A stretch of 36,208 nt of DNA, from positions 1 through 36,208 of the forward strand of contig JTLS01000060.1 in assembly GCA_000826855.1 (NCBI GenBank). The letters are read 5' to 3'. A program made the position numbers and the translations under genes. The notes under the pieces were generated by a model. It was not told where the DNA came from and ran no database searches. It saw nothing but the letters and a program-made list of their open reading frames with translations. Source of the stretch: Basidioascus undulatus. Taxonomy: Eukaryota. This document shows positions 12,024 to 14,684 of this stretch, piece by piece (the stretch's first letter is position 1; every line of letters starts with the position of its first letter).

Positions 12024-14684
12024 TCAACGCTCCGCAGCTGTAACCACAGCAGGCACAACCAGACCTCTCCCGCCCTGATGCCACCGGTACGCGAGCGACC
12101 TCCGCCGCTTTGCTCGCTCCTCCTCGACGTCACCGCCGCGCTTCGCCCGCGCGAGCGCACCGCGCATGATCGTCCGCAGAACGCGCTGGTAATCCGAGGG
12201 CAGAGTAGCCATGCAGACCTCTAGAATGGCAATGGGACTTAGAATGAAAGGGTCCGGGGACGGCGCGAAGGGAAGACGCACCGAAAGTGCGTATGAGCAC
12301 CTCGCATGCTTTCGTGATGCGCGGGTCGGAGAATGGGGATTTGTGTTTGTCGAGGACAAGGACGAGGTGGAAAGATGGTTGGAGGAGAAAGGGGCCGAGA
12401 ATGAAGGGCGAGTAGGCGAGACCTGGGTCCGACGAAAGCACTCTTTCGGCCGCCTGCAGTGCCTCCCTCCGTTCAGCAAGCGATCGAGTCAAATGGCAAG
12501 AAGCATGAGGAGTACCTCCGCGACCTTCACGGCGTGCTCCGTCGCTTCCTGTTCTGACGCACTCATCTCACCCGATACCCAAAGCTCCGCCACCGCGGCC
12601 TCGTCCATGAGAAGCACCGGATCCCAGCCCCCGGGGGTCCCAACCCTGTCTAACAGCAGCCGACACGCATGCAGCCCGAGCGCAGCGTACTCTATGCCCG
12701 CTCCGCTATCACCGCCGCTGCCAGCGAGCTGCGCAAGGCTCATAGCGTAAGCGTCGAGGTGCGACCGAATCTGGGCCTTCGCGGGCGCAGCGACCGAAGC
12801 GCCGCCGCCGCTGGCTAATTTGATGAGAGGGTGCGAGAGGGCATGATGCAGATCGAGAAGCATTCCGAGGATCGTGCAGAGTGGGAGGAGAGCGCCGAAA
12901 AAGTCGGGGGAGGACGCGTGGACGGTCGGGCCGCGCGGTCGGGAAGTCGAAAGTTGGGTAAAATCGCTCGAGGAGGATTGCCAGAGGTTCTCGGGAGCAG
13001 GATGGAGTAGGGTCTGGCACTCGCTGTCGAGGAGGACGAGCGGCCGGTTGAACGCAAGGCCGAGAATGCGGTCAACCTGCGAGAAGCGCAAGGGAAATTA
13101 AATGGGCGTGAAGTGACAGCGAAGGAGGAGACCCACCATGTAAAGTAGCCAGAAAGTCCTTCTTCGCTCTGCTCGCTCCTCCTCGCCCATCGCGGCTCCC
13201 GCCTGCTCGACCTCGCGCCCAAGCTGGAGCTCCTTCGCGAGCATCCAAGCGCCCGTCCACCAGCGCAGGCTGACGCCCTTGTACTCGCTCGCGCTGAGGA
13301 CGGTTCCCAGCTGCACGTACGTGATCACGTCGTCGAGGCTGCCGCCGCCGCCGGACGGCAGGTCCTCGCCCTCCTGCGTCGGCCGGATGGCGGTCACGCC
13401 GTGCTGGAGCGGTTGGAGCGCCGAGACGCAAAGGTCGAATAGCGTCTGGATCATGCGCGCCCGGAGGACCGGAGACGCGATCAGCACGCCGTCGTCACAG
13501 TTGTACGCGCCGACGCAGAGCATCGCGTAGAGGAGCGTCGGCCGCGTCTTGCGCGGAGACGTCGGGTGGAGGATCGAGCATGGCCGAACGAGGTAGGCGA
13601 GCACTTGTGGCGGGTGTTGGAAGTAGGCGTCGAGGAGCCTGGAGGCGAGGGCGGGAGAGATTGAGGGCGAGGAGGAGGATAGGGTGGGGAAGAGATCGTG
13701 GAGGATGGGATAGCCCGATGTGTGGCCATCTGCTGAAAGGGGAGAGGCCTTTGCGACCGGCGAAAGGGAGGCTGTTGATGAAATAACGTTCAGCGGATCC
13801 CAGCATAAGATAATTGAGACCCAGCAATACGCACAATGTGGTTCGGCAGGTTGAAGCTGTTGCTGCAGCTGGTGGTGAGGGCTCGCTGGTGTGCTGAACG
13901 AGAAGTCCCAGGCCAGCAAGTTGATGCCGGAATCTGAGCGAGCAGGATGTTAAAAAAAATATCGGCCCAGGAATCTCACCCAACTCACTTTGCGCGGGAT
14001 CGAGGACATCGGACAAGTCGGGAGCGGCGAAGGGGAAGTTGAATGCAAGATTCGCAGGCGCGGGCTGAGCAGGGGTCGGCAGCTGAGGCGCCGGCGGTGG
14101 AGGCGGGGTGGGTAGTGGTTGTTGGTTGAGGTGAGGTTGAGTCTGGGGCGGGATGACCGATTGTTGAGCGTTGGTGTTCGAGGGGGAAGGGGAATCGCTC
14201 AGCGAGCTCGACGGGGAAGGCGCCGGCGGCGCCGCACCCGAAGGCGCTGTCGTCGAAACCCTGGCTGCTCTAGCGGCAGCGTCTTTTGTTGACGCTTTTC
14301 CGCGCTTCTTACGAGCGCGAACGTATTCGCATACGACCTTGGCGTCTGTGGAGGAATTGCTTCAGTAACGGCCTCGATCGGGAGGGCACACGCATACATT
14401 CAGGACAGACCTTGACACCGCTGACATGGGTGCAATCCATCGCTATTTGCCCTCCAAACAGCACCTTGTCACCTCTAGAGGACCATCTGACAGAGCGCAG
14501 ACCGTGAGCGCTCTCACCACTTGACTCGGCTCGCATTGCACGCATCGCACGCTCGAGAGATGCGCTGCCGCTTTGGCGGCGACGGTTGCGCCGGGTCTGC
14601 GCCGCTATCGCGGAGCAGCGATGCGGCGCTTGGTGGCTGGGAGGAGTGTAAAGGCGCAGATTGGGTAAGTGAAGCGGGAGACAT
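12024..14684 (-). CDS. xlnR-like: Zn(II)2Cys6 transcription activator of the XlnR/Xyr1/AraR family, multi-exon
   Basis: The spliced DNA-binding domain reads [47 protein letters not shown]. The middle region reads [42 protein letters not shown]...[42 protein letters not shown]. The C-terminus reads ATEHAVKVAEAAERVLSSDPGL...KACEVLIRTFEVCMATLPSDYQRVLRTIMRGALA...YRWHQGGRGL. All are colinear with XlnR as recalled. No disabling lesion seen. Confidence 0.92.

Follow-up and report, generated by a model that had tools for sequence, protein, structure and literature searches.

The window analysed here is contig JTLS01000060.1 of Basidioascus undulatus (assembly GCA_000826855.1), 36,208 nucleotides (nt) in full length, and its minus strand carries, from 14684 to 12024, a gene for a full-length Zn2Cys6 regulator of the XlnR/AraR family. 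We read this gene as intact and native, encoding a Zn2Cys6 activator of that family that was vertically retained in a basidiomycete of the Wallemia lineage, and we give this explanation as a whole roughly an even chance. In the literature the family is confined to ascomycetes: reviews and primary papers up to 2026 hold that basidiomycetes are without an XlnR homolog and cite that absence as an argument for the independent evolution of plant-biomass regulators in both phyla, and Todd et al. 2014 (PMC3998117) have the ascomycete activators of plant-biomass breakdown arising after the ascomycete/basidiomycete split. Finding such a family member, at full length and apparently expressed, in a basidiomycete contradicts this stated absence and implies either that the family goes back further than supposed or that it was passed on in an ancient transfer; if it does predate the split, the view of a post-split origin would be wrong for the XlnR/AraR family. 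The regulator can also serve as an outgroup when the family is dated or rooted, gives a natural test case for the ancestral features of XlnR signalling, and makes it possible to test whether its host lineage controls pentose or xylan use in the ascomycete manner. The gain is limited, since a single gene from a single little-studied lineage is concerned and the protein architecture is ordinary for the family.

The gene encodes a complete family member

Residues 39–730 of the predicted protein align with XlnR-like proteins over their full length and end at the YRW...G.GL motif that these proteins have in common. The three motifs named in the original prediction, namely the first loop of the Zn cluster, the basic linker and the C-terminal YRW..G.GL tail, are all found in the regulator. 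Its Zn cluster (residues 46–72) has the spacing C-X2-C-X6-C-X5-C-X2-C-X6-C and is followed by the basic linker, as in the wide XlnR/AraR family, and at the C-terminus YQRVLRTIMR and AYRWHQGGRGL correspond to the family end YQR.FR..MR...(L)YRW...G.GL, with matches at Y719, R720, W721, G725, G727 and L728 (the tail YRWHQGGRGL occupies residues 719–728). To measure conservation we aligned 25 XlnR-lineage proteins (12 Pezizomycotina, 7 Saccharomycotina and 6 Taphrinomycotina-type) and took the 119 columns in which they reach at least 90% identity; the regulator retains 100 of these 119, the AraR rows 105–107 and the core rows 80 to 119. Together with the end-to-end alignment, these columns show that the conserved blocks of the central PF04082 (Fungal_trans) region are present, for which the Pfam profile itself scores 15.5 and 12.3 bits on single exons, below the cut-off of 23, because an intron splits the domain. 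Exon 5 alone matches XlnR-like proteins with expectation values (E) of 5e-45 to 1e-42, a similarity well outside what chance would give. A protein-cluster search with the same exon returned generic Fungal_trans clusters only, Ascomycota being their commonest phylum, and among solved structures no chain matched the central domain at E up to 1. 

The DNA-binding domain, judged by its residues, is of the XlnR type and not of the AraR type. It follows the XlnR pattern RISRACD.CN..R.KCDG..PC..C......CEY and is identical to three Pezizomycotina XlnR proteins at 28–29 of 47 positions, in contrast to 20–21 of 47 for two AraR proteins, in which the domain reads CDSCH..RVRCDR..PCSRC. The prediction of a full-length XlnR/AraR-family member is thus borne out by the end-to-end alignment, the conserved columns, the DNA-binding domain and the tree described below.

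The ends of the gene, given in the original prediction as 12024..14684, proved exact, with the ATG at 14684–14682 and the TGA at 12026–12024. Our model joins eight exons across seven GT..AG introns of 55–75 nt into an open coding sequence of 2220 nt, which translates into 739 amino acids (aa). The true start codon is uncertain, as an alternative in-frame ATG at 14756–14754, 72 nt upstream of the chosen start at 14684, would add 24 residues. The Zn cluster is encoded across exons 1 to 3, all of which, like the remaining exons, lie on the minus strand. Exon 1 (14518..14684) holds the start codon, the N-terminal tail and the first half of the Zn2Cys6 cluster plus two bases of a Cys codon, intron 1 splitting the last Cys codon of the first Zn loop (TG/C). 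Exon 2 (14411..14442) is a 32-nt micro-exon with GT..AG borders that we assign to the middle of the cluster because it restores the conserved CDG..PC..C block. Exon 3 (13989..14345) supplies the last cluster Cys (14331–14329), the basic linker (to 14290) and a Pro/Ser/Ala-rich spacer, and exon 4 (13835..13933; 99 nt) is variable spacer. The first half of the central fungal transcription-factor domain, its most conserved part (YPIL), is encoded by exon 5 (13137..13771) and the second half, including GGWDP, by exon 6 (12516..13076). Exon 7 (12282..12453), assigned on splicing, alignment and conserved positions, encodes the C-terminal regulatory region (DPGLAYSPFILGPFLLQPSF ... ACEVLIRTF), and exon 8 (12024..12220) the YQR..R..MR block, the YRWHQGGRGL tail (12089–12060), 11 residues more and the TGA.

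Part of this splicing pattern is visible in a contig of the sequencing run X3. Its record 16 (2016 letters) contains pieces that lie on exon 3 (13989–14347), exon 5 (13135–13771) and exon 6 (12515–13074). The exon 5 and exon 6 pieces join directly, which confirms intron 5, and exactly 99 letters, the length of exon 4, separate the exon 3 and exon 5 pieces; this gap supports introns 3 and 4, the exon 4 piece itself being unlisted. Introns 1, 2, 6 and 7 are placed by sequence conservation and splice signals. The X3 contigs (7687–18121) also omit many GT..AG stretches of 52–98 nt on the minus, coding strand of the neighbouring genes, with joints in the MYND-finger gene at 10936–10995 and 11332–11431 and seven joints in the major facilitator superfamily (MFS) transporter gene between 15608 and 16495, all on the minus strand with GT..AG ends. 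The X3 contigs therefore behave like a transcript assembly, which suggests that the regulator gene is expressed, and their joints serve as intron evidence for the contig analysed here.

GCP3 places the host in the Wallemia lineage

The host had been called basidiomycete-like, and the contig's GCP3 gene bears this out in its matches, its tblastn scores and its tree. Of the best 120 matches in the GCP3 search, 113 carry an organism name, and 112 of these are from basidiomycetes, the remaining one being Tuber. Neither Taphrinomycotina nor any ascomycete other than Tuber occurs among these best 120 matches. Summed over the whole gene, tblastn bit scores are 828 for Wallemia, 740 for Rhodofomes, 582 for Phenoliferia and 447 for Tuber. 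A FastTree of 121 rows joins the contig's GCP3 and Wallemia as sisters (support 100; 64% identity over 640 columns); 115 Agaricomycotina rows form the sister group of the two, Phenoliferia lies outside these, and three Tuber-like, ascomycete-like rows sit beyond a branch of 1.56 (support 100). A protein-cluster search with the GCP3 frame gave unrelated low-score clusters only. By this one marker, GCP3, the host is placed as a basidiomycete of the Wallemia lineage (Wallemiomycotina, in which NCBI taxonomy has two classes), distant from Wallemia itself.

The regulator gene resembles its surroundings. Its GC content (0.64) and GC content at third codon positions (GC3, 0.73) lie inside the range of the six neighbouring genes (GC3 0.69–0.88), its relative synonymous codon usage correlates with that of the pooled neighbours at 0.905 (0.73–0.95 among the neighbours themselves), and its intron density is like theirs. 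Two assemblies from different studies, either of which may be the source of the contig analysed here, span the locus: a contig of X1 (record 3, 10,866 letters) covers 7453–18318 with the regulator and both of its neighbours, and a contig of X2 (record 7, 44,530 letters) covers all of 4500–24400, so that GCP3, regulator and transporter lie in one piece. Codon use, intron density and the two spanning assemblies argue against contamination or recent transfer. Exon 5 is also matched by two 151-letter contigs of the soil metagenome X4, one of them without any difference and the other with a single one. At position 7874, X1, X2 and X3 all read A and the contig analysed here reads G.

The regulator is a deep branch outside the XlnR and AraR clades

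The main tree (IQ-TREE, LG+C20; 43 rows and 684 columns, the rows being a selection from about 290 family proteins in which each named group is represented) falls into three blocks. The first comprises the regulator, six Taphrinomycotina-type rows and six rows of an environmental clade (99/95), the second is a single clade of seven Saccharomycotina rows (100/99), and the third consists of 23 Pezizomycotina rows (100/99), including XlnR (95/94), AraR (100/100) and long-branched others. The grouping of the regulator with Taphrinomycotina recurs in a FastTree of 128 rows (support 98) and places it within the family. An exclusive clade of the regulator with 12 Pezizomycotina XlnR rows is rejected by the approximately unbiased (AU) test (log-likelihood lower by 56.2, p = 9.1e-5), and the regulator branches on the far side of Saccharomycotina, outside the Pezizomycotina clade of XlnR, Xyr1 and XLR-1. 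The AraR clade of Eurotiales likewise does not contain it, both the type of the DNA-binding domain and the clade placement lying elsewhere. The regulator is therefore a deep, long branch (end branch 1.84) of the wider family, outside the Pezizomycotina XlnR and AraR clades. The placement with XlnR made in the original prediction stands for the wider XlnR/AraR family, given the 99/95 clade with Taphrinomycotina, and falls for the Pezizomycotina XlnR clade proper. Since XlnR and AraR both nest on the Pezizomycotina side, the regulator is best called a co-ortholog of the two. 

If the regulator is moved outside the group of Taphrinomycotina and environmental clade, the log-likelihood drops by only 1.4 and this position is not rejected (AU p = 0.40). 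Rooted on the regulator, the tree gives the basidiomycete, then Taphrinomycotina, then Saccharomycotina with Pezizomycotina. This order equals the species tree; vertical descent therefore fits, and so does a transfer from a stem lineage.

Comparison with the individual groups agrees with this position. Like the Pezizomycotina XlnR, Xyr1 and XLR-1 rows (Penicillium hispanicum P0341, Penicilliopsis zonata P0174, Botrytis P0012, Metarhizium P0312), the regulator has the same domain order and length class and keeps the conserved central-domain blocks and the YRW..G.GL C-terminus. Unlike them it belongs to a basidiomycete host, shares 33–36% overall identity with them, and has 739 aa as against about 830–1020 aa, being shorter because it is without the long Pezizomycotina inserts. 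It also has nine extra residues past the GL tail, at which all compared proteins end. Its nearest named relatives are the XlnR-like proteins of Taphrinomycotina (Taphrina deformans P0002, Protomyces lactucae-debilis P0329, Savitreella phatthalungensis P0328), with a top identity in the tree alignment of 43% over 596 columns (Taphrina); these are similarly compact (733–807 aa), but they are ascomycete proteins and form their own clade without the regulator (100/99). We know of no functional study of these Taphrinomycotina proteins, although no search was aimed at one. In the environmental clade (P0144, P0330, P0014, P0334, P0335 and a 577-aa Oidiodendron maius protein), the weak sister of the regulator, P0144 shows 41% identity to the regulator over 507 aa and likewise retains 100 of the 119 family-conserved positions. 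In contrast to the regulator gene, the genes of this clade are intronless and sit in compact genomes with few introns. AraR of Eurotiales (P0376, P0380, P0410) is another member of the wider family and can be aligned with the regulator from end to end (29% over 850 aa for P0380); because it nests inside the Pezizomycotina clade, we regard it as a later paralog and not as the regulator's counterpart.

Relatives of the regulator are found in ascomycetes

Our searches covered annotated or predicted proteins. An exhaustive phmmer search with exon 5 over 1.84 billion cluster representatives found 240 proteins at E up to 0.001, with local identity of at most 56%, and the whole-protein identity of the regulator to any match is 30–41%. 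In a sub-family profile search 60 of the 120 listed rows bear an organism name and 60 out of 60 are ascomycetes, spanning Taphrina, Protomyces, Savitreella (taxonomy checked), Lipomyces, Dipodascopsis, Tortispora and many Pezizomycotina; in the exon 5 search the 8 organism-named rows out of 23 are again all ascomycetes. No basidiomycete relative occurs among the organism-named matches of these protein searches, and no Wallemia protein among the regulator's matches, though the collection includes Wallemia proteomes. A metagenome scan with exon 5 gave 239 pattern matches, none of which is a relative. The absence from basidiomycetes that the original prediction had stated is thus what the literature says and what the protein searches gave. 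In a 2026 study of Rhodotorula no clear homolog of XlnR was found (PMC13561427), and our literature searches on XlnR in Wallemia, Wallemiomycetes, Geminibasidiales or basidiomycetes, including one on horizontal gene transfer, brought up no mention of a gene of this kind.

According to a 2026 paper, XlnR is absent from Saccharomycotina (PMC12969433). In our searches the early-diverging budding yeasts (Lipomyces species, Dipodascopsis, Tortispora, Trichomonascus) have clear XlnR-family proteins that form a clade of their own (100/99), among them P0145, P0156, P0007, P0170, P0188, P0348, P0352–P0354, P0357, P0359 and P0374.

Ancestral retention or ancient acquisition

In the explanation that we prefer, the family would have been present in the common ancestor of ascomycetes and basidiomycetes, a lineage related to Wallemia would have kept the gene, and the other sampled basidiomycetes would have lost the family. 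Its evolutionary core, which we put forward tentatively, is that the XlnR/AraR family predates the ascomycete/basidiomycete split and that the intron-rich regulator gene is the only basidiomycete survivor found so far, the family having been lost from Pucciniomycotina, Ustilaginomycotina, Agaricomycotina and Wallemia.

Several points weigh against this explanation. Vertical descent needs at least four independent losses, one for each of these four groups, and the searches that returned no other basidiomycete member were made on annotated or predicted proteins. In the best tree the regulator pairs weakly with the environmental clade (92/79), both being long branches, and its amino-acid composition was flagged as deviant in the tree analysis. 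At four positions the first Zn loop departs from that of XlnR (A/AS/V for Q/QL/T), and the two may therefore recognise different DNA targets. No glycoside-hydrolase or esterase Pfam family turned up in the frames scanned around the regulator, and GGCTAR sites are depleted in the window (12 versus 27.5 expected; 100 of 100 shuffles had at least 12). Finally, the function of the regulator is predicted from family analogy, and what speaks for its transcription is a set of splice-like joints in X3, whose library type is unrecorded.

An ancient horizontal transfer from a stem or unsampled early-diverging ascomycete, a Taphrinomycotina-like or environmental-clade organism, with host codon use and introns gained later, is a possible origin that we take seriously without favouring it. 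It would account for the patchy distribution, with one basidiomycete lineage set against none of the 60 organism-named family matches, and parsimony favours a single transfer over losses numbering four or more. The tree offers it further support, as the regulator falls inside the clade of Taphrinomycotina and the environmental group and leans weakly towards the latter, which also includes an extra short copy from a Pezizomycotina species, the Oidiodendron maius protein, and so hints that this sub-family moves between lineages or is patchily kept. However, the regulator is nested in no sampled subphylum clade, each of these being monophyletic without it (100/99), and the position outside Taphrinomycotina and the environmental clade survives the AU test. 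A donor like the environmental relatives, whose genes at loci L001–L004 are intronless, would also require seven intron gains, and the codon use of the regulator is fully host-like. Ancestral retention and ancient transfer both fit a tree in which the regulator is a single leaf; we lean to retention. The original prediction had offered an ancient retained lineage or a horizontal acquisition, and both survive as ancient events, whereas the AU test, codon use and the tree speak against a recent arrival from any ascomycete clade sampled here.

Predicted function and local context

By analogy with its characterised relatives the regulator should be a sugar-activated transcriptional activator. XlnR and Xyr1, according to a review, bind GGCTAA or GGC(A/T)3 sites (PMC5468973), and they control xylanolytic, cellulolytic, transporter and pentose-pathway genes (PMC5468973, PMC13532241). 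The regulator would likewise bind promoters through its Zn cluster, probably at GGCTAA-like sites as XlnR, Xyr1 and XLR-1 do. A plant-derived sugar, most likely a pentose such as D-xylose, would activate it through the central and C-terminal domains, and the active form would switch on genes that serve the transport and catabolism of sugars and the breakdown of polysaccharides.

The MFS sugar transporter gene (about 15600–18120, minus strand) lies directly upstream of the regulator, its 3' end at most about 900 nt from the regulator start, and on grounds of analogy it is the most plausible local target. The other genes of the contig include a small MYND zinc-finger gene (10705–11575, minus strand) directly downstream of the regulator, with two introns confirmed by X3 record 15, an ARMT1-like sugar-phosphate phosphatase (about 19300–20770, minus strand), a levoglucosan-kinase-like gene (about 22700–24300, plus strand), GCP3, IQGAP and Nop53. 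The levoglucosan-kinase-like gene carries Pfam AnmK on two frames, and its best solved relative is levoglucosan kinase (E = 1.5e-28). Our Pfam scan took in the open frames of at least 110 aa over the whole window and 148 of the 186 frames of 45–109 aa between 7.4 and 24.6 kb; with no glycoside-hydrolase or esterase family in the scanned frames, the predicted lack of xylanolytic neighbours holds at the Pfam level. The transporter, the ARMT1-like phosphatase and the levoglucosan-kinase-like gene may form a loose sugar-salvage neighbourhood.

If the family member had taken on a new job, it could control, for example, a local module of this kind, for sugar uptake or for levoglucosan, and not the genes for pentose and xylan. 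The long end branch and the altered first Zn loop are in keeping with this, as are the transporter as nearest upstream gene, the levoglucosan-kinase-like gene further along, and GGCTAA sites at 18538 and 18747 upstream of the transporter and at 22193 upstream of the kinase gene. However, these three sites carry no weight, because the motif is depleted over the window and they are no more than chance, and there is no tight cluster, 8 kb with unrelated genes lying between; we therefore consider such a change of role unlikely. The suggestion of anhydro-sugar sensing has no support and stays a guess: real as the levoglucosan-kinase-like gene is, some 8 kb and two genes separate it from the regulator, and no binding-site signal ties the two together.

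Nothing would be unusual here if the host were truly an ascomycete or the contig chimeric or a contaminant, but this is very improbable. The host assignment is based on the single marker GCP3, and the earlier one had been drawn from gene style alone; nevertheless, the full-length GCP3 groups with Wallemia (100) and is separated from the ascomycete-like rows by a long branch, Tuber is the sole ascomycete among its best 120 matches, GC3 and codon use are uniform over seven genes, and contigs from two studies, which may both be the contig's source, span the locus (X2 record 7 and X1 record 3). We find it hardly credible that a canonical XlnR gene arrived recently from filamentous ascomycetes (Pezizomycotina). 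Pezizomycotina XlnR is the abundant, well-known form and gives strong matches, but its identity to the regulator is only 33–36%, the clade that such a transfer predicts is rejected by the AU test, and the seven introns of the regulator gene are of host type and its codon use is like that of the host.

Environmental loci and a GCP3 gene model

A metagenome scan with a 4-row alignment located the environmental XlnR-like genes at L001 (2092–4098), L002 (10085–12064), L003 (3778–5823) and L004 (9974–11869). They are of three types (P0144, P0330 and P0014) with very short intergenic spacers, L004 has about 48% GC, and Pfam finds ordinary eukaryotic genes only in the frames flanking these loci.

Among the GCP3 matches, the Wallemia protein P0024 (1271 aa) contains a histidine-phosphatase domain (PF00328) besides its GCP domains. 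The contig's GCP3 matches only residues 553–1268 of P0024, and this record is probably a fused gene model.

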